From NCBI GenBank assembly GCA_052327205.1, contig CM126223.1, forward strand, positions 35,030,001 to 35,094,000: a stretch of DNA of 64,000 bases, written 5' to 3'. Both the position numbers and the translations under genes were made by a program. The notes below the pieces were generated by a model. It had not been told where the DNA came from. It saw only the letters and a list, made by a program, of their open reading frames with translations, and ran no database searches. The DNA comes from Somniosus microcephalus. Taxonomy: Eukaryota. The first letter of the stretch is position 1. Each line of letters starts with the position of its first letter. Of this stretch, positions 9,294 through 49,386 are shown piece after piece.

Positions 9294-12200
9294 TTATAAG
9301 AACATAAGAAATAGGAGCAGGAGTAGGCCAATCAGCCCCTCGAGCCTGCTCCGCCATTCAATAAGATCACGGCTGATCTGATCCTTACCGCCAATCCACT
9401 ATCACAGAACCATCTCCTGAATCTAACAGAATTAGACACACAAAATAGGAGCAGGATCAGGTTACACGGCCCCTGGGACCGCTCCGCTACCCACAGCCAT
9501 GACCGATCCGAACCTAGACTCATGTCCAAATTCCTGCCCGCTCCCCGTAACCCTTAATTCCCTTTACTTCTAGGAAACTGTCTATTTCTGTTTTAAATTT
9601 ATGTAATGATGTAGCTTCTACAGCTTTTTGGGGCAGCATATTCCATGGACCTACCACCCTCTGAGTGAAGTAGTTCCTCCTCATCTCAGTTTTGAAAGAG
9701 CAGCCCCTTATTCTAAGACTATGCCCCCTAGTTCTAGTTTCACTCATCATCGCGAACATCCTCCCCGCATCCACCCGATCCAACCCCTTCACAATCTTAT
9801 ATGTTTCAATAAGATCGCCTCTCATTCTTCTGAACTCCAATGAGTAGAGTCCCAATCTACTCAACCTCTCCTCATATGTCCATCCCCTCATCCCCGGGAT
9901 TAACCGAGTGAACCTTCTTTGTACTGACTCGAGAGCAAGTATGTCCTTTCTTAAGTATGGACACCAAAACTGTACGCAGTATTCCAGGTGCGGTCTCACC
10001 AATACCTTGTACAACTGAAGCAATACATCCCTATTTTTATATTCTATCCCCCTAGCAATGAAAGCCAACATTCCATTGGCCTTCTTAATCACTTGCTGCA
10101 CCTGCATACTAACCTTTTGAGTTTCGTGCACCAGGACCCCCAGATCCCTTTGTACTTCAGTACTTTCCAGTTTCTTGCCATTAAGATAATAACTTGCTCT
10201 ACGATTTTTCCTGCCAAAGTGCATAACCTCACACTTTCCAGTATTGTATTCCATCTGCCAAATCTCTGCCCACTTACTTAGCCTGTCTATGTCCCCTTGC
10301 AGGTTTTTTATGTCCTCCCTCCCATCTTAGTATCATCTGCAAACTTTGATATGTTACACTCGGTCCTCTCCTCCAAATCGTTAACATAGATTGTAAAGAG
10401 TTGGGGACCCAGCACTGACCCCTGCGGAACACCACTAGTTACTGATTGCCAGTCTGAGAATGAACCATTTATCCCAACTCTCTGCCTTCTGTTAGATAGC
10501 CAATCCTCTATCCATGCCAGAATATTACCCCCAATCCCGTGATTTTTTTATCTTAAGCAATAATCTTTTGTGTGGCACCTTGTCAAATGCCTTTTGTAAG
10601 TCTAAATACACTACGTCCACTGGTTCCCCTTTATCCACCCTATACGTTACTTCCTCAAAGAACTCCAGCAAATTTGTCAAACATGACTTCCCCTTCATAA
10701 AACCATGCTGACTTTGTCCTATTAAATTATGATTATCCAAATGTCCTGTTACTGTCTCCTTAATAATGGACTCCAAAATTTTACCTACCACAGATGTTAG
10801 GCTAACCAGTCTATAGTTTCCAGCCTTCTGTCTACTGCCCTTTTCAAATAAGGGTGTTACATTAGCAGTTTTTCAGTCTGCCGGGACCTTTGCCGAGTCC
10901 AGGGAGTTCGGGAAAATTATTACCAATGCATTCACAATCCCTACCGCCACTTCCCTCAAGACCCTAGGATGTAAGCCATCAGGTCCAGGTGATTTATCCG
11001 CCTTGAGTCCCATTATTTTACCGAGTACCACTTCCTTAGTGATTTTGATCGTGTTTAGCTCCTCCCCCCCTGTTTGTCCAGTGTTGGGATATTCTTAGTG
11101 TCCTCTAGTGTAAAGACTGATACAAAATATTCATTCAGTGTTTTTGCCATCTCCATATTTCCCACCATTAAGGGACCAACATTTACTTTAGCCACCCTTT
11201 TTCTTTTTATATAACTATAAAAACTCTTACTATCTGTTTTTATATTTTTTGCTAATTTACTTTCATAATCTATCTTCCCTTTCTTAATCAATCTTTTAGT
11301 TATTTTTTGCTGTCTTTTTAAAGTTTTCCCAATCCTCTATCCTCCCACTAGATTTGGCTACCCACTAGATTTGGCTACCTTATATGCCCATGTTTTTAGT
11401 CGAATACTGTCCTTAATTTCTTTACTTAGCCACGGATGGCTGTCTTTTCTTTTACACCCTTTTCTTCTCAGTGGAATATATATTTTTTGGAAGTTGTAAA
11501 ATAACTCCTTAAATGTACACCACTGATCATGTATCATCTTACCCTTTAATCTATTTTCCCAATCCACTCTACTCAATTCCGCTCTCATACCTTCATAGTC
11601 TCCTTTATTCAAGCTTAGCACGCTTGTTTGAGATCCAACCTTTTCACCCTCTAATTGAATATGGAATTCAACCATGTTATGGTCACTCATTCCAAGGGGA
11701 TCCTTTACAAGGACATTTTTAATTAATCCTGTCTCGTTACACAGGACCAGATCTAAGGTTGCTTGCCCCCTGGTTGGTTCAGTTACATACTGCTCAAGAA
11801 ACCCATCCCTAATACACTCAATGAACTCATCCTCAAGGCAGCCCTGCCCAATTTGATTTGTCCAATTAATATGATCGTTAAAATCCCCCATAATTATAGA
11901 TGTTCCCTTATTACAAGCCTCAACTATTTCCTGATTGATACTCCGTCCAACAGATTTGCCACTGTTCGGAGGCCTATAGACTACGCCCACTAGTGTTTTT
12001 TTCCCCTTATTATTCCTTACCTCCACCCAAACTGTTTCATTATCCTGATCTTTTGACCCAATATCATTTCTCTGTATTACATTGATTCCTTCCTTTATTA
12101 ACATAGCCACCCCACCTCCCCTTCCTTCCTGCCTGTCCTTCCTGATCGTTAAATAACCTGGTATGTTTAATTCCCAGGCATTGTCACCCTGCAGCCATGT

Positions 12201-13658: not shown

Positions 13659-16447
13659 CAGGGCTGGGAGCTTAACATACAGGGGTATTCAGTATTTAGG
13701 AAGGATCGACAAAAAAGAAAGGGAGGAGGGGTAGCATTGCTAGTAAAAGAGGGGATAAATGCAATTGAAAGGAAGGATATTAACTCAGTTAATACAGAAT
13801 CTATATGGGTGGAGCTAAGAAATAGCGAGGGGCGAAAAACATTAATAGGAGTGGTATATAGGCCTCCAAATAGTAAAATAGAGGTTAGGGAGGGCATCAC
13901 GAGGGAAATTAGAGAAGCGTGCAATAAGAGCACAGCTGTCATCATAGGTGACTTTAACTTACATATAGATTGGACTAGCCTAATCAGTAAAAATAATGAG
14001 GAGGAGGAATTCCTTGAGTGTTTGAGGGATGGTTATCTGGATCAATATGTCGAGGAACCAACTCGGGAACAGGCTATATTGGACTGGGTACTGTGCAATG
14101 AGAAGGGACTAATCAGTAATCTTGTTGTACGGGGACCCTTGGGTCAGAGCGATCATAACATGATCGATTTCTCACTCGAAATGGAGAGCGAAGAAATTGA
14201 CTCAGAGACTAAGGTCCTGAATTTAAACAAGGGGAATTATGATGCCATGAGACGGGAACTGAGTAGGTCTGATTGGACAACGTTCCTGGGAGGACTGGAG
14301 GTAGATAAACAATGGCAAACATTTAAAGATAGAATGACAAAATTGCAAAAATTGTTTATACCAATCTGGCATAAAAGGAAATCTAAAAAGGTGACTCAAC
14401 CGTGGATAACAGGGGAAATTAGAGACAGCATAAAATCCAAAGATAGGGCGTATAAAATAGCCAAAAAAAGCGCCAGAGCGGAAGATTGGGAACAGTTTAA
14501 GATAGAGCAAAGGAGGGCAAAGGGCATAATCAAGAGGGGCAAAATAGCTTACGAAAACAAGCTGGCGGAAAATATAAAAACTAACTCCAAAAGCTTTTAT
14601 AAGTATATTAAAAGGAAAAGACTGGTGAAAACCAAAGTTGGTCCATTGCAGTCAGATACGGGGGAATATATAATGGGAAATAAGGAAATGGCAGATCAAC
14701 TAAATGCATACTTTGGGTCAGTCTTTACGAAGGAAGACACAAAAAACCTCCCTGGGATATCGGGAAAAATAGGGACATTGGCAAAGGAGGAACTGACGCA
14801 AATCAATATCTCTAAGGATATGGTGTTAAGGAAGCTAAAGGGATTGAAGGTGGACAAATCCCCAGGGCCTGATAACATGCATCCTAGGGTACTGAAGGAG
14901 GTGGCCCTAGAGATAGCGGATGCACTAAGGATGATTTTTCAGAATTCATTAGACTCGGGAACAGTGCCGATGGATTGGAGGGTAGCTAACGTTACCCCAC
15001 TATTCAAAAAGGGGGGTAGGGAAAAAGCAGGTAATTACAGACCTGTAAGCCTTACATCAGTTGTGGGCAAAATGCTGGAGTCCATCATTAAGGATGAAAT
15101 AGCGGAGCACTTAGCAAATGGGGACAGGATAGGACAGAGTCAACATGGATTTACAAAGGGTAAATCGTGCTTGACTAATCTATTGGAATTTTTTGAGGGA
15201 GTAACTGGTAGAATAGATGGGGGAGAGCCAGTAGATGTGGTGTACCTGGACTTCCAAAAGGCCTTCGATAAGGTCCCACATAAAAGATTAGCATGGAAAA
15301 TTGAGGCTCATGGGATAAAGGGGAAAGTTTTGGCGTGGATAGGGAACTGGCTGTCAGATAGAAAACAGAGAGTTGGAATAAACGGCTCATTTTCTGAATG
15401 GCAGGCAGTAACAAGTGGGGTACCACAGGGATCTGTCCTGGGCCCCCAGCTGTTCACAATTTACATTAATGACCTGGATCAGGGAGTCGGATGCAGCATT
15501 TCCAAATTTGCAGACGACACTAAACTAGGAGGGGGGGGTGGGCTCAGAGGAAGAGACCAGGAAGCTCCAGAGCGATTTGGACAGACTGGGCGATTGGGCG
15601 GATAAATGGCAGATGCACTATAATGTGGACAAGTGCGAAGTTATCCACCTTGGGTGCAGGAACGGGAGGGCAAATTATTATTTAAATGGCAATAGATTGG
15701 GAGAGGGGGAAGTACAGAGAGACCTGGGTGTTCTTGTACACCAGTCACTGAAGGCGAGCATGCAGGTGCAACAGGCGGTCAAGAAGGCAAACGGTATGCT
15801 GGCCTTCATAGCAAAAGGGTTAGAATACAGGAACAGGGATACCTTGCTGCAGCTGTACAGGGCACTGGTGAGACCACACCTCGAGTACTGTGTACAGTTT
15901 TGGTCGCCTCATCTGAGGAAGGATGTTCTTGCCATGGAGGGGGTGCAGCGGCGATTCACCAGGCTGATACCAGGAATGGCGGGAATGACCTATGAGGAGA
16001 GACTATGTAGTTTAGGGATGTACACACTGGAGTTTAGAAGATTGAGAGGGGACCTCATAGAAGTGTATAAAATTCTGACAGGTCTAGACAGACTGGATGC
16101 AGAAGGAATGTTTCCCTTGGCGGGTGAGAACAGAACTAGAGGACATAATTTAAGGATAAGGGCTAAACCATTTAGGACAGAGATGAGGGGGAATTTCTTC
16201 ACTCAGAGAGTGGTGAACCTGTGGAACTCATTGCCACAGAGGGCAGTGTACGCCAGCTCATTAAATATATTTAAGAGGGAATTAGATATATTTCTACGGG
16301 CAAAAGGGGTTAAGGGTTACGGAGAGAAGGCGAGGACGGGATACTGAATTAAAGGATCAGCCATGATCTCATCGAATGGCGGAGCAGGCACGAAGGGCCG
16401 AATGGCCTACTCCTGCTCCTATCTTCTATGTATCTATGTATCTATGT
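13659..16447 (+). mobile_element. Young 5'-truncated CR1 LINE with near-intact ORF2
   Basis: The 622-aa and 269-aa ORFs are joined by a single +1 frameshift in the G run at 15531-15538. EN (VYRPP, GDFN, SDHNM) and RT ([14 protein letters not shown]) motifs are present, with a (tatctatg)n tail. Confidence 0.97.
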
Positions 16448-28342: not shown

Positions 28343-28416
28343 CTGGGAGAACGACCACAAATGAGGAGCTGGAAGACATGCTGGAGAGTGGAAATCCCGC
28401 TATCTTCACATCTGGG
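28343..28416 (+). CDS. STX1A: Syntaxin-1A coding exon (equivalent to human exon 7, 74 nt): (T)[24 protein letters not shown]
   Basis: Acceptor ttattccag| and donor |gtgagt, phase 1 to 0. The linker peptide carries the syntaxin LE motif; GNPAIF.SG favours STX1A over STX1B or STX2. Confidence 0.95.
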
Positions 28417-31269: not shown

Positions 31270-31407
31270 ATCATAATGGACTCGAACATTACGAAGCAGG
31301 CACTGAATGAGATTGAGACACGACACCATGAGATCATCAAGCTGGAGAACTGTATCCGTGAGCTGCACGATATGTTCATGGACATGGCAATGCTGGTGGA
31401 AAGCCAG
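31270..31407 (+). CDS. STX1A: Syntaxin-1A exon (equivalent to human exon 8, 138 nt): [46 protein letters not shown]
   Basis: Acceptor ttttcccccatag| and donor |gtaaga, phase 0/0. Encodes the N-terminal half of the Qa-SNARE motif, ending on the zero-layer Gln. Confidence 0.97.
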
Positions 31408-34477: not shown

Positions 34478-34588
34478 GGTGATGTGGTCAATAGTATCGA
34501 GCGGAATGTCGTCAATGCAGCAGATTATGTCGGGCAAGCGAAGGAAAACACCAAAAAAGCAGCTAATTTTCAGGGTACCAGCAGACGG
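34478..34588 (+). CDS. STX1A: Alternative exon 9a (111 nt), syntaxin-2-like SNARE C-half: GDVVNSIERNVVNAADYVGQAKENTKKAANFQGTSRR
   Basis: Strong acceptor ttttccttctgtttcag| and consensus donor |gtaagt. Same length and phase as 9b, 16/37 residues identical to it, SNARE layer residues kept. Confidence 0.88.
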
Positions 34589-34612
34589 GTAAGTGGCCGG
34601 AGAGAACGGCAC

Positions 34613-34618
34613 CCTAAT
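34613..34618 (+). promoter_or_regulatory. Putative branch point (cctaAt, A34617) for exon 9b
   Basis: Best yTnAy match in the 77-nt intron, followed by a pyrimidine-rich tract up to AG 34664-34665. Confidence 0.55.
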
Positions 34619-34665
34619 CAGATCTGTTATTTTCATGTGTCTTTGCTCTTTTCCTCACTGCCCAG

Positions 34666-34776
34666 GGAGAGATGATAGACAGGATCGAATACAACGTTGA
34701 GCACTCAGTTGACTACGTAGAGAGGGCAGTGTCCGACACGAAAAAGGCGGTTAAGTACCAGAGTAAAGCGCGACGG
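34666..34776 (+). CDS. STX1A: Canonical exon 9b (111 nt): [37 protein letters not shown]
   Basis: Acceptor cactgcccag| and donor |gtgagt; essentially the vertebrate syntaxin-1 sequence. Confidence 0.97.
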
Positions 34777-34908
34777 GTGAGTAGTGCGAGTGTCTCCACC
34801 CCAGCATGTGGCGTGGGCGACCCCATTTGTGAATTGTGCTTCCCCAATTCCATCACAAGCGAACACGGGAAAAAATGTTTCTCGAACCTTGCGTTCACGA
34901 TTGTCCCG

Positions 34909-35570
34909 CGGACTGTATTAGTCACTAGTCATCAGGCAGACTGTATTGGTCACTAGTCATCCCATGGACTGTATTAGTCACTAGTCATCCCACGGACTGC
35001 ATTAATCACTAGCCATCCCATGGACTGTATTAGTCACTCGTCATCAGGCGGACTGTATTAGTCACTAGTCATCCCGCGGACTATTAGTCACTCGTCATCC
35101 CGCGGACTGTATTAGTCACTCGTCATCCCGCGGACTGTATTAGTCGCTCGTCATCCCGCGGACTGTATTAGTCGCTAGTCATGCCGTGGACTGTATTAGT
35201 CACTCGTCATCCCGCGGACTGTATTAGTTGCTCGTCATCCCGCGGACTGTATTAGTCGCTCGTCATCCCGCAGACTGTATTAGTCGCTAGTCATGCCGCG
35301 GACTGTATTAGTCACTCGTCATCCCGCGGACTGTATTAGTCACTCGTCATCCCACGGACTGTATTAGTCGCTAGTCATGCCGCGGACTGTATTAGTCACT
35401 AGTCTTCAGGCGGACTATTAGTCACTAGTCATCCCGCGGACTGTATTGGCCACCAGTCATCCCGCGGACTGTATTGGCCACTAGTCATCCCGCGGACTGT
35501 ATTGGCCACTAGTCATCCCGCGGACTGTATTGGCCACTAGTCATCCTGCGGACTGTATTGGCCACTAGTC
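34909..35570. repeat. CpG-rich minisatellite, 28-bp unit ggactgtattagtcactcgtcatcccgc
   Basis: About 23 tandem copies with variant blocks. Confidence 0.95.
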
Positions 35571-41914: not shown

Positions 41915-42098
41915 CATCGTTGCTGGGTCAAAATCCTGGAACTCCCTCCATAACAGCACTGTGGGAGTACCTTCACCACACGGGCTGCAGCGGTTCAAGA
42001 AGGCGGCTCACCACCACCTTCTCAAGGGCAATTAGGGATGGGCAATAAATGCTGGCCTTGCCAGCGACGCCTACATCCCAGGAACGAATTTTTAAAAA
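41915..42098 (+). mobile_element. LINE 3' fragment (same family as 3385-4985)
   Basis: Closely matches 4803-4985. Confidence 0.9.
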
Positions 42099-42348: not shown

Positions 42349-42426
42349 AAAATGATCTTTATAGGAATTTGCATTGCAGTAGTACTGTTGGTTATCATCA
42401 TTGTTCTGGCTGTGTCTCTCAGTTAA
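42349..42426 (+). CDS. STX1A: Alternative last coding exon 10a, transmembrane anchor KMIFIGICIAVVLLVIIIVLAVSLS*
   Basis: Strong acceptor tttcttcccttcccacag|, phase 0. Lys plus ~22 hydrophobic residues then TAA makes a tail anchor. Resembles the recalled STX2 tail KLMFIIICVIVLLVILGIILATTLS. Confidence 0.85.
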   Translation, partial: KMIFIGICIAVVLLVIIIVLAVSLS

Positions 42427-42929
42427 TGCTCCAAAACACCATGATCCCGCAGAATCATCCTGATTGAGACTAAAGCTGGGCTTTTGTTCCGTCATCACCA
42501 TACAGCACTCATGTGGAAAGGAGAGACAGCAACCCATCATTACTGGGCATTTCCGTTTCATTTTGACAAACACCTATCATTTTCCAGGAGGTGCTGTTCA
42601 CAGCCAGCAAGACCATTACTCAGGTTTCAGTTCTATCCTCCTGTTGTGGACCTTGCTTCTTTTGGCATCACTGTAAGCTGAAGAACAACATCAGGATTCA
42701 AGCACAGTCTCTTCTGTATTGTTTATTGCTTACCTTCAATGCCATAATCTCATTTAAGAAACATTATCAGAATGAACCTCGCCTTAACAGACCTTGATCA
42801 CACCAACTTATTGGGTGACTCTGAATCCAGCTGAAGTTCTGCTGTAATAAGGTTTTTATAATAATTTCTAAATCAAATATCTCCCCTTTTCTCTTCTTCC
42901 ATCCTTCCCTCTCTCCTCTCCTGACTCTC

Positions 42930-43130
42930 NNNNNNNNNNNNNNNNNNNNNNNNNNNNNNNNNNNNNNNNNNNNNNNNNNNNNNNNNNNNNNNNNNNNNNN
43001 NNNNNNNNNNNNNNNNNNNNNNNNNNNNNNNNNNNNNNNNNNNNNNNNNNNNNNNNNNNNNNNNNNNNNNNNNNNNNNNNNNNNNNNNNNNNNNNNNNNN
43101 NNNNNNNNNNNNNNNNNNNNNNNNNNNNNN
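42930..43130. other. Assembly gap (~200 N)
   Basis: Run of N flanked by CT-rich repeats. Confidence 0.99.
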
Positions 43131-43765
43131 TCTCGCCCCTTCCTCCCTCCCTCTCGCCCCTTCCTCCCTCCCTCTCGCCCCTTCCTCCCTCCCTCTCGCC
43201 CCTTCCTCCCTCCCTCTCGCCCCTTCCTCCCTCCCTCTCGCCCCTTCCTCCCTCCCTCTCGCCCCTTCCTCCCTCCCTCTCGCCCCTTCCTCCCTCCCTC
43301 TCGCCCCTTCCTCCCTCCCTCTCGCCCCTTCCTCCCTCCCTCTCGCCCCTTCCTCCCTCCCTCTCGCCCCTTCCTCCCTCCCTCTCGCCCCTTCCTCCCT
43401 CCCTCTCGCCCCTTCCTCCCTCCCTCTCGCCCCTCCCTCCCTCCCTCTCGCCCCTCCCTCCCTCCCTCTCGCCCCTCCCTCCCTCCCTCTCGCCCCTCCC
43501 TCCCTCCCTCTCGCCCCTCCCTCCCTCCCTCTCGCCCCTCCCTCCCTCCCTCTCGCCCCTCCCTCCCTCCCTCTCGCCCCTCCCTCCCTCCCTCTCGCCC
43601 CTTCCTCCCTCCCTCTCTCCCCTTCCTCCCTCCCCCTCTCCCCTTCCTCCCTCCCCCTCTCCCCTTCCTCCCTCTCCCCTTCCTCCCTCTCCCCTTCCTC
43701 CCTCTCCCCTTCCTCCCTCTCCCCTTCCTCCCTCTCCCCTTCCTCCCTCCCTCTCTCCCCTTCCT

Positions 43766-43810
<45 letters not shown>

Positions 43811-43858
43811 CCCCCCCTTCCTCTCTCTCTTTCTCCCCTCTCCCCATTCTCTCTCTTT
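43131..43858. repeat. CT-rich 21-bp minisatellite grading into (CT)n
   Basis: Unit tctcgccccttcctccctccc. Confidence 0.95.
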
Positions 43859-44929
43859 GAAAAATCCTCTGATGGTGTTTGAACTGCCAAGGGCGGGTTT
43901 TACTAGAAGCAGCTTGACCTCCAGCCTCTAGCAAACACTATGCTGAGGTTGCTAGCGAAGTATCTCCCACATTATGCATCCAACACAAATTGGACATAAC
44001 AGTATCTTTGGCAAAGAGGTTTTATTAAACATCTTCCATAGCAAATACCTATAGATACATCACGCACAGATCCCCTACAAACAGACCCCTACACACGGCT
44101 CCAGATAGACAGAGACACATACCTGCTCAAAGATACAAGCGTACACCAATACAGACCCACATGAACGTACCCCTCCTGATTAACCTGTAAAGAAGCTCCA
44201 TTGACACCAGCAGTGTAGATGTGCCCGCAGAGCTTCCCTTCCCACTGTTACTCTCCTTGCAGACAGAAGCAAGGAAAAGTAAAAAAATTTGATACAGTGA
44301 AGGGCAGGGAAATGCAATTACCTGTACATAGATATCTCCAATTGAAGAGTTACAAGCACAATGGGACAAATGGCCTCCTCTGCTGTAATTTATAGGATTC
44401 TATAAGACTTATAGAAAAATCCAGTAAACCCACAAATAGAGGAACAAGAACTGATTCAGGAACAGGAAACAATACAGATACAGGAAAAGATATGGAAACC
44501 GGAAAAGATACGGAAACAGTAAAACATACGGATACAGGAAAAGGAACGCATACAGGAGTCAGAACACATACAGGTACAGAAACATGAACAGATATGGATA
44601 TAAAAACACATATGAATACGCAAACAGGAATTTTTGCAGCAACAGATATATAGAATTTTATAGAACACAAGGTGGCCATTTAGCCCATCACACCTAACAG
44701 CATAAAAACAATTATCCTAACCTTTCCCTCTTTTTTTGGTAGTGATCTTTAATTTATGTGCTCTAGTTACCAACACACCAACCAGTGGAATTAGTTTTTC
44801 ATTATTATCTGATCAAAACTCCTCCATCAGACCCCCTCATAACTTTCTCTGCTCTGGTGAAAAAATGACTCACTTTCTCCAGTCTCTCCTCCTAACTAAA
44901 GCTTCTCAATTCTAGCATAATCTTAGTAA

Positions 44930-46789
44930 ACTAGCAAGAGACATAAAAACAGATTATAAAAGCTTCTATAGGTATGTAAAAAGGAAGAGATTAGCAAAAG
45001 TAAACATAGGTCCCTTCGAGGCAGAGACAGGAGAAATTATAATACAGGAGAAATTATAATGGGGAATAAGGAAATGGCAGAGACATTAAACAAATACTTT
45101 GTATCTGTCTTCATGATGGAGGACATATTACATTCCAGAAATAGTGGAGGACCAAGAGTCTAGTGAGGAATTTAAAGAAATTAGTATTAGTAAAGAAATA
45201 GTACTGGAGAAATTAATGGGACTAAAAGTCGACATACCTTGGACCTGATAGCCTACATCCTAGGCTTTTACAAGAGGTAGCTACAGAGATAGTGGATGCA
45301 TTGGTTTTGATTTTCCAGAGTTCCCTAGATTCTAGAACAGACCCAGCAGATTGGAAGGTAGCAAACGTAACCCTGCTATTCAAAAAAGGAGCGAGAGAGA
45401 AAATGGGAACTATAGGCCAGTTAGCCTGATATCAGTGGTAGGGAAAATGCTAGAATCTATTATTAGGGACGTGGTAACAAGGTACTTAGAAAATCATATG
45501 ATTGGGCAGAGTCAACATGGATTTATGAAAGGGAAATCGTGTTTGACAAATCTAATATAATTTTTTGAGGTTGTAACTAGCAGGGTAGATGAGAGGAACC
45601 AGTGGATGTAGTGTATTTGGATTTATCAAAAAGCAGTCGATAAACCACACAAGAGGTTATTACACAAAATTAGGGCTCATGGGATTGGGGTAATATATTA
45701 GCATGGCTTGAGAATTGGTTAACGGACAGAAAACAGAGTAGGAATAAACAGGTCATTTTCGGGTTGGCAGGCTGTAACTAGTGGGGTACCGCAAGGATCA
45801 GTGCTTGGGCCTCAGCTATTCACAATCTATATCAATGACTTAGATGAGGGGTTCGAGTGTAATGTTTCCAAGTTTGCTGACGACACAAAATTAGGTGGGA
45901 AAGTAAGCTGTGAGGATGTCTCCAAGAGGCTGCAAAGGGATACCGACAGATTGAGTGATTAGGCAAGAACATGACAGTTGGAATATACGTGGAGAAGTGC
46001 GAAGTTATCCACTTTGGTAGGAAAAATAGAAAAGCAGAATATCTTTTAAATGGTGAGAGATTGGGAAATGTTGGTACAGAGGGACCTGGGTGTCCTTGTA
46101 CATGTATCACAGAAAGTTAACATGCAGGTATAGCAAGCAATTAAGAAAGCAAATGGTATGTTAGCCTTTATTACAAAAGGATTGGAGTATAAGGGTAAAG
46201 AAGTCTTACTACAATTATATAGAGCCTTGGTGAGACCACACCTGGAGTATTGTGTACAGTTTTGGTCTCCTTACCTAAGGAAGGACATACTTGACATAGA
46301 GGGAGTGCAACGCAGCTTTACTAGACTGATTCCTGGGATGAGGGGATTGTCCTATGTGGAGAGATTGAGTCAACTAGGCCTATATTCTCTAGAGTTTAGA
46401 AGAATGTGAGGTGATCTCATTGAAACATATAAAATTCTTAAGGGGCTTGACAGGGTAGATGGTGGAAGGATGTTTCCCCTGGCTGGGGATTCGAGAACTA
46501 GGGATCACAGTCTCAAAATAAGGGGTCGGCCATTTAGGACTGAGATGAGGAGAAATTTCTTCACTCTTGTGAATCTTTGGAAATCTCTACCCCAGAGAGC
46601 TGTAGATGCTCAGTCATTGCGTATATTCAAGACAGGTTGATAAATTTTTGGATACTAAGGGAATCGAGTGATATGGGGATAGTGCGGGAAGGTGGAGTTG
46701 AGGTAGAAGATCAGCCATGATCTTATTGAATGGCGGAGCAGGCTCGAAGGGCTGAATGGCCTACTTCTGCTCCTATTTCTTATGTTCTT
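44930..46789 (+). mobile_element. Degenerate CR1 LINE (RT to 3' tail), nested in an older minus-strand CR1 (~44650-44930 and ~46790-47190)
   Basis: [32 protein letters not shown] and RPHLEYCVQFW with stops and frameshifts; tail ttcttatgttctt. Confidence 0.92.
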
Positions 46790-49305
46790 GTGAACCTCTC
46801 TTGCACCCTGCCTATGGACTTGATATCCTTCATAAAGTTGGGGCGTCCAAAACTGGATACAATGTTCAAATGCAGCCTAGCCAATGACTTGTATAGATTT
46901 AGTATTACCTCTTTGTTCTTGTACCCTACTAAGAACTTTTTTTTACAGCTTTATCAATTGGTCCTTCCAATTTAAAAGATTTGTGTATCTGAACCCCTAA
47001 GTCCCTCTGCTCCTCTACTCCATTTAAAGAGCATATGCCCTCTAATTATTCTTTCTCCAAAAATGAATCACTTGACATATCTCCACATTAAATTTCATCT
47101 GATGTCTATCTGCCCAATCTACTACCCTGTCTAGGGCCTCCTGAAGTCACTTAGTCTTCTTCACACTCCCTATTTTGTGTTTGAGAATTTTTATATAATG
47201 CCCCTATAGCCAACTCCCAAAGTTACAGTGGCGAAACGGGAGTAGTTCCGAGGAAATTCCTGGTCATAATCATACTGAAGCCTAAGAGATACAGTATTTT
47301 TCACCAATTCCCCCTTCCCCAAATGTGCTAGTGTACAGTTCCATTGGCAGCAGATACCCTCTAATATCCTGTCTGAATAGTCACTCTGCATGTGTGGGCC
47401 TAGATAGTGTTCAGTCAGGGGGCCAAGGGAGGCGGCGCAACCATCTGAAATTCTGTCCTTGGTAAGTACTCACATGGACTCTCTAGTAGGAGTGACTGAT
47501 TTTTCTCCCCTCCTAATCTGGGGTACTGAGGCCAATTGTAGTGCCCCCCCCAACCATGGCTATACTGGCCTGTGTGGCTCAGCACTACACCGGGTAGTAC
47601 ATTTATTTACTGAATCATCAGAGAAGCTTAGAAAGAGTTGATTTTACATACACCAAAATATAGCCCTGGTGTGGTAAGGCTTGTAATTCCATAATGACTG
47701 CTCGTTTTGTGTCATATTAAGGGGGAGGAGATAATTTGTCAAAGTTTGTCAGTATGGCTATATACATTGCCATGTACAGAATTACATTAATAACAAAAAA
47801 GGTCAAAAGAATTTTTAAAAAAGACACTCTTTCACTGGTCTCAAAGAGAACATTGTCAGCAGTGACGAAAGCTACTTGAAAGCCACTAAATAACAGCAAA
47901 GGCGAGGCTGCTAAAACAGTAGTGTACTGCAGGGGAACGAGTTAAATGAGCTCACTTTAATAACAAAAGCAATACCATTTATCCTTGAAGCTAAAATGTA
48001 TTATTGCTGCGGGAGCAATGAACCCAATTACGGTGTGGATCCTCTTTCCTGTCTCTCTCTGTCACGGGACACGTGTGCATCATGTGGCTGTAAAACTACA
48101 GCACTGCTCAGTATGTGCGGATAATGTGGTCATTCTGCAGGTGGCTCATCCCTTCTTCCTATATGTTATCCTGTTCTTCTTGCATCTACATTGCAGCTCT
48201 CGCTTTCTCCATTTATGAAGAACTGGCTCACTGTTTTTGCATGATTGTATATTTTATGGCTGCTTTGTTATTACTTTATAAAGCGTAATATTTAGAAAAC
48301 GTTTTTCTAAACTCATGCAACTCATTTACGAGGTGTGCGGGAGGTGGATGGTGACTCACTCTGTGGGAGGCAGTTGAACATTTCTGACAGACCGGCAAGA
48401 GTTTGAGAAGCTGATCATTTCATCGGCATCACGGGATGAAAGGAACTCAGGTTTGAAATGTGGGCTAGACCTTCACGGAGAGAGTAGACAGCCTTACATA
48501 GTGAGCCTATTATTGGTCACAATACCATGCAGTGCCTGATGAAGGGGATCAGGCTGAAGGTGAGTACCACACATAGCAGTGGCCTCGTGAGTAGTATCAT
48601 GATATGGTATCAGCAACTAGTGTGTGAATGCCAGTCTCCATATTCCGAAACCAGCTCCTTTTTCCAAATCTGCACATCATCCTGCAACTGGACAGCACAG
48701 CACCAAGCAGTTGGGTCAATGGGTAACCAGTTAGCCAGCGTATCAGTCAGGAGCCAGTTAACTAAAGTCAAAGGTTTACAAAAAAATTATACATTGAGGT
48801 TAAAAGATAATAAAGCAACAAACCTCCTGCCTTCCCCGCTGCTTCAGGTTAGTGTTAATGTGAAGAGTTTGTAATGAGTGGGATTGTAATGTCAGATGTT
48901 TGTTAATGTGAGACGTGTTATAATGTGGGGGGGGAGGAGGGTGGTTAATGTGTGAGGGGCTTTACAGTGTGGGGGATTTGGAGTGTGATGGTTGGAATTT
49001 GAGGTGTGTTGATGCTTAGAATGAGAGTGTGTTTAGTGTGGGAGGTTTGTTTAGTGTGGGAGGTTTGTAATAGGGGACTTGTGTTGTGAGGTGGGTTTGT
49101 AATGTGAAGAGTGTGTTAAAATGAGGGGGTAGTAAGTATTATTAAGGCAATTTGTTAATGTAAAGGGAAGATTTTAATCTATGGTTGGAATTGTTCATCT
49201 TCCATTCTGTAAAGATCCTGAATTAATTCAATATAAAATAAAAGCTCCAGAACTAACCCTTTCTCCTCTTCTTCCTGTCATGCTGCTTGGATTTGGGGAC
49301 TGCAG

Positions 49306-49386
49306 AAGAAGATTATGATCATTATATGCTGTGTGGTGCTGGGGGTCGTCATCGCCTCCACAGTTGGGGGAGTATTTGGATTTTGA
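49306..49386 (+). CDS. STX1A: Canonical last coding exon 10b: KKIMIIICCVVLGVVIASTVGGVFGF*
   Basis: Acceptor tgcag|, with branch point actaAc (A49256) and a pyrimidine tract upstream. Encodes the syntaxin-1 TMD with the CC pair; IASTVGG favours STX1A. Confidence 0.96.
   Translation, partial: KKIMIIICCVVLGVVIASTVGGVFGF

Follow-up and report, generated by a model that had tools for sequence, protein, structure and literature searches.

The locus described here raises the question of whether a single syntaxin gene can carry two alternative last exons for its membrane anchor. An initial annotation had proposed this for a 64,000-nucleotide stretch of the Somniosus microcephalus genome (hereafter, the window), and had made its reading depend on splice junctions into position 42349 and on conservation of the exon that starts there. 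The window was found to contain STX1A exons 7 to 10, with two exons 9 (9a and 9b, starting at 34478 and 34666) and two anchor exons (10a and 10b, starting at 42349 and 49306), all on the + strand. The coding part of exon 7 (28345..28416) was located by tblastn of P0001 (96%), with a 5′ boundary that is not base-exact. Exon 8 (31270..31407), which encodes the SNARE motif's N-terminal half and ends at the layer-0 Gln, matched named shark STX1A proteins, and in the contigs described below its 3′ end forms the loose end that precedes both 9a and 9b. Exons 7, 8 and 9b were closest to STX1A, and separate STX1B, STX2, STX3 and STX4 loci, labelled from identity, are present in the same genome. The values for the other syntaxin loci were 89, 74, 67 and 62%. 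STX1B and STX4 are neighbouring genes. A genome search gave a single STX1A locus, with exons spread across C22:34.87-35.08 Mb. BUD23, which is fused to STX1A in one turbot model (P0131), served as the single neighbour marker; its exons lie on C3, another contig than that of the window (C22), and the orthology is therefore assigned without confirmation from synteny.

The translations of 10a and 10b were exactly those first reported; both exons are in phase 0 and start after an AG, and the coordinates agree with the claimed a-then-b order, 9a preceding 9b and 10a preceding 10b. When both strands of the whole window were scanned for AG-started, hydrophobic, stop-ended frames, 10a had the top score (3.68) among 10 rows and 10b the second. 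The sequence upstream of 10a is 90% pyrimidine. At 10b, a pyrimidine tract and a branch-like CTAAC lie about 30–55 nt upstream with no intervening AG, so its acceptor was regarded as valid, if not textbook. The coding part of 10a (42349..42426) is followed by a 3′ UTR of which 42427..42876 is covered by unspliced contigs from runs X1, X2 and X5; neither AATAAA nor ATTAAA was present between 10a and 44024, an N run excepted. A repeat is located at 41915-42090.

Exons 9a (34478..34588) and 9b (34666..34776) are homologous, 111 nt each, bounded by AG and GT, in phase 0 and placed after the layer-0 Gln. Exon 9b encodes the canonical syntaxin-1 C-terminal SNARE half, and 9a, whose divergence is far above that of 9b, encodes a half of the STX2/STX3A class with the start of the juxtamembrane region. 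All eight core layers of 9a from +1 to +8 are hydrophobic or small. The anchor of 10a has 25 amino acids and, as claimed, a single Cys at the C271 position, whereas the 26-amino-acid anchor of 10b (49306..49386) has both C271 and C272. Positions 260–265 hold three basic residues in 9a+10a versus five in 9b+10b. The features of a tail-anchored Qa-SNARE, i.e., kept core layers, a basic juxtamembrane stretch and one C-terminal hydrophobic anchor, were all present.

Splicing was analysed in contigs of seven of the 20 listed runs, which were presumed to be RNA although none is so recorded and which carry no statement of tissue; contig depth in them is no measure of isoform rank. The junctions 9a>10a, 9b>10b and 9b>10a were found in contigs from three related organisms, and junctions into 42349 were present in three of the four runs examined. 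Run X6 contained 9a>10a together with exon 8>9b>10b, and each loose end equalled the start of the window exon at 30 of 30 letters. Run X12 contained exon 8>9a>10a-like, and a single 1749-nt contig of run X5 read exon 8>9a>retained intron>9b>10a. Runs X1, X2 and X18 gave UTR or single-read contigs only, one of them intronic; in the single-read contigs of X18, the run that shares its organism code with the records containing the stretch in full, no junction into 42349 was seen. Run X7 yielded no contig, which does not establish absence of the junctions. It is confirmed that both anchor exons are real in the STX1A of this cartilaginous fish and are spliced in related organisms.

The expected pairs 9a+10a and 9b+10b both occurred in contigs, but the pairing was looser than had been anticipated: 9b>10a was seen in the intron-retaining contig of X5, so the coupling of exons 9 and 10 is not strict. 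In automatic gene models, on which these counts rest, 9b>10a was present in 10 of 116 classified database models, 9a>10b in three and an in-frame joining of 9a to 9b in 19, and 13 of the 46 anchored models with a single exon 9 showed mixed pairing. In the 77-nt 9a-9b intron (34589..34665), a CTAAT that resembles a branch point lies at a distance of about 29 nt from the 9a donor. It is known that exons become mutually exclusive through a near branch point, the threshold being a distance of about 50 nt to the upstream donor (PMC7969005). Because the motif lies under this steric limit, 9a and 9b would be mutually exclusive in sharks, and the pair is a candidate for the arrangement enforced by a near branch point in alpha-tropomyosin and OGDH; the motif was identified by sequence, and the 19 models above join 9a to 9b. 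The choice of 10a would be that of a proximal last exon.

The retained intron also bears on another explanation, in which 9a and 10a are real but chiefly turn synaptic STX1A down, 10a and the retained 9a-9b intron giving a soluble or NMD-bound product outside neurons, like mammalian syntaxin-1C. By the window sequence, the intron-retaining form of X5 meets a stop at 34673, 101 nt before the last junction. One of the three runs with 9a shows this exon solely in the frameshifted, intron-retaining form, and seven shark models with 9a have no anchor and terminate just inside the intron, after a few residues; 9a use may therefore be partly non-productive. In human STX1C, divergence sets in immediately after the layer-0 Gln, via an alternative acceptor (10.1101/162958). 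However, the 9a>10a junctions of X6 and X12 are clean. The anchor and the SNARE layers are, moreover, intact from sharks to coelacanth and teleosts, which argues for selection on the protein. We therefore consider it unlikely that turning STX1A down is the chief role of these exons.

Conservation of 10a extended from rays to coelacanth and teleosts; with the junctions into 42349 also present, neither condition that would have refuted the initial annotation holds. Orthologues of 9a/10a were found in models of ray, catshark, coelacanth, sturgeon, eel, tarpon, carp, catfish, herring and perch-like fish, and were absent from 13 of 13 amniote STX1A records; in amniote STX1A, 9a and the class ii anchor would have been lost. 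The initial annotation had suggested looking for remnants in the STX1A introns of bony fish and tetrapods; bony fish have intact exons instead.

Anchors were divided into class i (the STX3A anchor, 10A), class ii (single-Cys) and class iii (Cys-Cys, as in STX1B and STX3B). The likeness of 10a to STX2 was upheld, as its nearest match is the second anchor of STX2, which has a single Cys, with identity at up to 15 of 25 positions. Its profile score was 44.4 bits for class ii, a profile that includes 10a, and 1.2 bits for class i. The a anchor here is not of the STX3A 10A class by these scores, and placing 10a with class i gave a p-AU of 0.049. In STX3 of the same genome all three anchors are intact, with class ii in the middle position, and STX1A and STX3 agree in order (a then b, ii before iii). 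Exon-class profiles were used to look for remnants in 32.8 kb of the window and at the STX1B-like (40 kb), STX2 (60 kb), STX3 (50 kb) and STX4-like (30 kb) loci, and only intact exons turned up. In these stretches no class i was detected in STX1A, no 9a or class ii in STX1B, and no 9b, class i or class iii in STX2; the search applies to intact exons, as old decayed ones would escape it. The probable inventory would be all five exons (9a, 9b, i, ii and iii) in STX3, 9a, 9b, ii and iii in STX1A, 9b and iii in the STX1B-like gene, and 9a and ii in STX2 (plus i in bony vertebrates).

Trees of exon 9 and of the anchors were calculated from 37 and 25 columns, respectively. All 25 vertebrate a-type rows fell on one side of the exon-9 tree (83/91, unstarred), and an STX1A-only clade of exon 9 was rejected (p-AU 0.0024). 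In the anchor tree, class iii grouped with arthropod anchors (97/91 and 98/92, both starred) and class i was recovered at 96/88 (starred), while a 10a+10b clade was rejected (p-AU 0.0028). Class ii was not one clade in the best tree, although its monophyly was not rejected (p-AU 0.30). That the 9a/9b pair arose in Bilateria was neither established nor rejected (p-AU 0.185), and invertebrate second exon-9 copies grouped with the b side, so exon 9 was duplicated more than once. It had been proposed that the ancestor of STX1/2/3 had both modules and that the paralogues later divided them. The trees agree that the duplication predates the split, but there are three anchors, and STX3 kept the whole set; the gene before duplication would have combined 9a and 9b with anchors of all three classes, i, ii and iii.

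The short alignments, the scattered class ii and the repeated duplication in invertebrates would also fit an origin of 9a/10a later on, within the STX1A lineage of fish, by local duplication or conversion from STX2, with the likeness to STX2/STX3A due to convergence or copying. Such an origin is quite improbable, given the rejection of an STX1A-only duplication for both exons and the shared exon order of STX1A and STX3 in one genome. A dismissal of 10a as a hydrophobic frame arisen by chance, as an artefact of assembly or as part of a paralogue nearby has nothing in its favour beyond the missing junction from the window's own organism, and is refuted by junction contigs from three organisms, orthologues in many fish and the one STX1A locus, leaving it practically no credence. 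We conclude, with good confidence, that 10a and 10b are spliced alternative anchors of one STX1A, that, together with 9a/9b, they likely descend from a cassette that predates the vertebrate split of STX1/2/3, and that they offer a predicted choice between a clamped synaptic form (9b+10b) and an STX2-like, less clamped form (9a+10a).

This layout is already known from other syntaxins. STX3A/STX3B (exons 9A/9B and 10A/10B; PMC8263458, PMC11476516) likewise have exons 1-8 in common, make their switch at the layer-0 Gln, and possess two C-terminal SNARE halves, a then b, and alternative anchors, with a syntaxin-1-like b set. Here, in contrast, the switch resides in STX1A, the canonical form is b, the class of 10a is not i but lies between it and 10B, and mixed 9b+10a products exist; the tandem exons 9 and the spliced alternative anchors are thus shared, but not the strict a+a/b+b pairing. 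STX2 (PMC8373072 supplement event 205; PMC4946901), which contains the anchor nearest to 10a, switches classes i/ii with one exon 9, whereas this STX1A switches ii/iii with two. In C. elegans unc-64, exons 8a/8b similarly provide one syntaxin-1 gene with neuronal or non-neuronal anchors via alternative last exons (PMC4946901), and the alternative-anchor layout of human syntaxin events has been dated to Bilateria (PMC8373072). Among soluble forms, STX1C/STX1AS departs from the canonical frame at the very Gln where 9a does, and in STX3S exon 9A is followed by exon 11A (10.1101/162958), whose place is taken by the class ii anchor in the same-genome STX3; both are without an anchor, and their possible descent from 9a or class ii is suggested by position only.

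The function of 9a+10a can be predicted from published STX1A mutants. Compared with STX1A, 9a has D231N, Y235R, E238V, V248K and S249E, i.e., STX2-type residues at five of the six positions tested (PMC10957171), and also R232S. STX2-type surface residues in STX1A raise spontaneous release (PMC10957171), and 9a+10a is therefore predicted to be a weaker clamp on spontaneous fusion. K260 and C271/C272, on the other hand, govern palmitoylation and spontaneous release, and loss of palmitoylation lowers it (PMC9183232), so that the published mutants point two ways for 9a+10a. Since 9a+10a would lack K260, one of the two palmitoylated cysteines, two of the five basic residues next to the membrane and the D231/R232 surface, it is predicted to serve non-synaptic or constitutive secretion. 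Exons 9b+10b would give the tightly clamped synaptic form, and 9a+10a an STX2-like form with a predicted poorer clamp. The five tested substitutions are common to 9a on the STX1A backbone and to published constructs, namely the engineered chimera STX1A-2(Cter) and point mutants of STX1A (PMC10957171, PMC9183232), but natural 9a+10a also alters K260 and the anchor.

Exons 9a/10a of fish STX1A already stand in automatic annotations of many fishes; our literature search, with subscription journals mostly outside its coverage, found no paper on them in fish or shark. A survey of splice isoforms shared out among paralogues does not mention syntaxins (PMC4494069). Tentatively, the plasma-membrane syntaxins of vertebrates may go back to one ancestor whose splicing cassette was 2 x 3, with two SNARE halves and three anchors, and is still whole in shark STX3, so that STX1A, STX1B, STX2 and STX3 would be isoforms frozen as genes; fish STX1A would still switch between clamped synaptic and STX2-like forms, tetrapods would have lost the switch, and human STX1C and STX3S may be decayed 9a and class ii exons. 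The family would then be a clear example of splice isoforms divided among paralogues after genome duplication. Within one gene, 9a+10a would be a natural, long-conserved counterpart of the hand-built STX1A/STX2 chimera, and fish stx1a knockouts and probes should allow for 9a/10a forms.

The 3' end of a syntaxin gene lies inside the window (G000:C22:35030001-35094000, in a genome of 6.4 Gb), and the earlier exons of the gene are located upstream on the same contig. Exon 7 lies near 28345 and exon 8 at 31270-31407, followed by two alternative exons 9 of 111 nt each, 9a (34478-34588) and 9b (34666-34776), and two alternative membrane-anchor last exons, 10a (42349-42426) and 10b (49306-49386). A query with 9a returned a single cluster of eight shark proteins, seven of which are named syntaxin-1A or 1A-like, and by these named relatives the gene is identified as STX1A of cartilaginous fish. 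No further copy of this gene was found in the genome. Four other exon-8 classes, at loci outside the window, were labelled by identity as STX1B-like, STX2, STX3 (two copies) and STX4-like. The synteny marker BUD23 is located at G000:C3:160439228-160449555, not on the contig of STX1A in this assembly, and the orthology therefore rests on sequence. Directly after 9b there is a tandem array of a 28-nt unit repeated 24 times (34904-35570), and directly after the 10a UTR, adjoining an N run, one of a 21-nt pyrimidine unit repeated 31 times (43131-43856). A decayed remnant between 10a and 10b (about 44960-46790), with similar pieces near 10200-10900 and 15700-16300, is presumably a LINE-like reverse transcriptase, judged by likeness.

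The translations of 10a and 10b matched those of the initial annotation, each in phase 0 after AG, and the two exons had the highest scores among 10 hydrophobic last-exon candidates from a two-strand scan. Splice junctions were analyzed in seven of the 20 read runs listed, and contigs for the 9a/9b stretch were obtained from three of four runs. The junction contigs come from relatives of the window's organism, and the RNA nature of the runs is presumed, as supported by the joins. Run X6 (organism C) gave a 235-nt contig with the 9a donor spliced to 10a, and a 3166-nt contig of exon 8, 9b and 10b; both loose ends matched the exon starts of the window at 30 of 30 letters each. Run X12 (organism G) joined exon 8 to 9a and then to the orthologue of 10a. 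The 1749-nt contig from X5 (organism B) consisted of exon 8, 9a, the retained 77-nt intron, 9b and 10a, followed by 450 nt of 3' UTR, and it meets a stop at 34673 when read with the window sequence. Junctions into 10a are present in all three runs, and 10a is a spliced exon. The pairs 9a+10a and 9b+10b, expected to be coupled, both occur in the contigs, but the 9b donor joins 10a as well (X5), and the coupling of exons 9 and 10 is loose. A short interspersed repeat at 41915-42090 was very deeply covered in each of the four runs examined there.

In the 77-nt intron between 9a and 9b (34589-34665), the 9a donor and a branch-like motif are 29 nt apart. This distance is below the steric limit of about 50 nt between branch point and donor, as cited in PMC7969005, and it would enforce the choice of a single exon 9 and would explain the intron-retaining form. 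Since 9a is joined to 9b in many bony-fish models, steric exclusion may be shark-specific or leaky. The intron, retained in one contig, is about 88% alike in organism B, and several shark gene models end a few residues into it.

For conservation, 264 proteins were collected from two region searches (the best 120 of 1479 and the best 120 of 2117 hits) and cluster look-ups, and a pattern filter, which missed a few, assigned 116 of them to the vertebrate STX1A type. Among these 116, 28 models were of the 9a>10a type (three being 9a/9b hybrids), 10 of 9b>10a, five of 9b>10b and three of 9a>10b, while 19 joined 9a to 9b and 51 lacked either an anchor or exon 9. The queries targeted 9a/10a, so the counts should not be read as frequencies. 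The 9a+10a models were from an electric ray, coelacanth (XP_005986912.1), sturgeons and teleosts (eel, tarpon, carps, catfishes, herring and perch-like fish). In the mammal, bird and crocodile STX1A records of the set, exon 8 was followed by 9b in 13 of 13 and 10a was present in 0 of 13; the matches listed included no STX1A from amphibians or lungfish. A mid-exon change from 9a to 9b in the eel and mormyrid models P0033, P0158 and P0176 is probably a mapping artefact.

Three anchor classes were distinguished: i (STX3A type), ii (single-Cys, the second anchor of STX2) and iii (Cys-Cys, STX1B/STX3B type). Profiles that contain these exons placed 10a in class ii and 10b in class iii; in this genome STX2 has class ii only and the STX1B-like gene class iii only. 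STX3 here carries 9A, 9B and all three anchors as intact exons, ordered i, ii, iii (L031:2635-2721, L031:4008-4085 and L033:765-842, on contig C36), the middle one being of the 10a class. Its position is where human exon 11A, of soluble STX3S, appears to be. By the coordinates in PMC8373072, the anchors of human STX2 are i followed by ii, and those annotated in human STX3 are i and iii. The shark STX3 lies in two inverted copies 34 kb apart (G000:C36, about 6.30-6.34 Mb, minus, and 6.36-6.40 Mb, plus; L004, L005, L031, L038), with identical translations for both anchors compared, and the pair reflects either a recent segmental duplication or a duplication in the assembly. At the 10b acceptor (49306-49312), two extra in-frame AG sites, three bases apart, lie downstream; use was seen for the first AG only, and the extra pair is likewise present in the STX1B-like and STX3 class iii exons.

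A tree of the anchors (49 rows, 25 columns) placed class i on a single starred branch and grouped class iii, likewise on starred branches, with those of ant, mosquito and prawn. It did not resolve class ii, for which a clade was not rejected (p-AU 0.30). Constraining 10a with 10b was rejected (p-AU 0.0028), and 10a with class i was borderline (p-AU 0.049). The tree of exon 9 (56 rows, 37 columns) put each of the 25 vertebrate a-type exons on one side (83/91, unstarred) and every invertebrate copy, tandem second ones included, on the b side. Both alignments are short and the bootstraps not yet settled. A duplication of exon 9 in STX1A only was rejected (p-AU 0.0024). A common origin of vertebrate 9a and the invertebrate second copies was not rejected (p-AU 0.185). 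Tandem exon-9 copies, the canonical one first, occur in insect, crustacean, mite and oyster syntaxin-1 models (P0024, P0029, P0036, P0042, P0063, P0187) and are probably separate duplications; ant syntaxin-1 has at least three anchor variants. These trees suggest that the anchor choice is probably bilaterian and that the 9a/9b pair is, at the least, older than the vertebrate paralogues. An ancestor of STX1/2/3 with both modules had been proposed; the duplication does pre-date the paralogues, but the STX3 set contains three anchor classes, not two, and we read the paralogues as having retained different subsets of this cassette.

All eight core layers are kept in 9a, which has N, S, R, V, K and E at 231, 232, 235, 238, 248 and 249, and T at 260, in STX1A numbering matched to the papers. 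In 10a, C271 is present and C272 absent, and the basic residues at 260-265 decrease from five to three in 9a+10a. In PMC10957171, the mutants D231N, R232N, Y235R, E238V, V248K and S249E increased spontaneous release and D231N/R232N had a smaller primed pool; in PMC9183232, palmitoylation of C271/C272 is under K260 control and loss of K260 lowers spontaneous release. Because these effects oppose each other, the prediction for 9a+10a is limited to a non-synaptic form that primes poorly; its spontaneous release may rise or fall on balance.

Alternative anchors are known in STX2 and worm unc-64, the latter being neuronal and non-neuronal (PMC4946901). PMC8373072 assigns a bilaterian date to the human events in STX2 and STX3, and its table has no STX1A or STX1B row. 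Two soluble variants are described: STX1C, which diverges at the layer-0 Gln, and STX3S, in which 9A is joined to 11A (10.1101/162958). The main text of PMC4494069 makes no mention of syntaxins, and no paper on fish STX1A 9a/10a was found, as judged by search listings. The STX1A anchor switch is real, ancient and conserved; its kind is already known, and in STX1A it appears undescribed, though automatically annotated. The points added here are a cassette with three anchor classes, the loose coupling of exons 9 and 10, and 9a residues that match mutants already tested.
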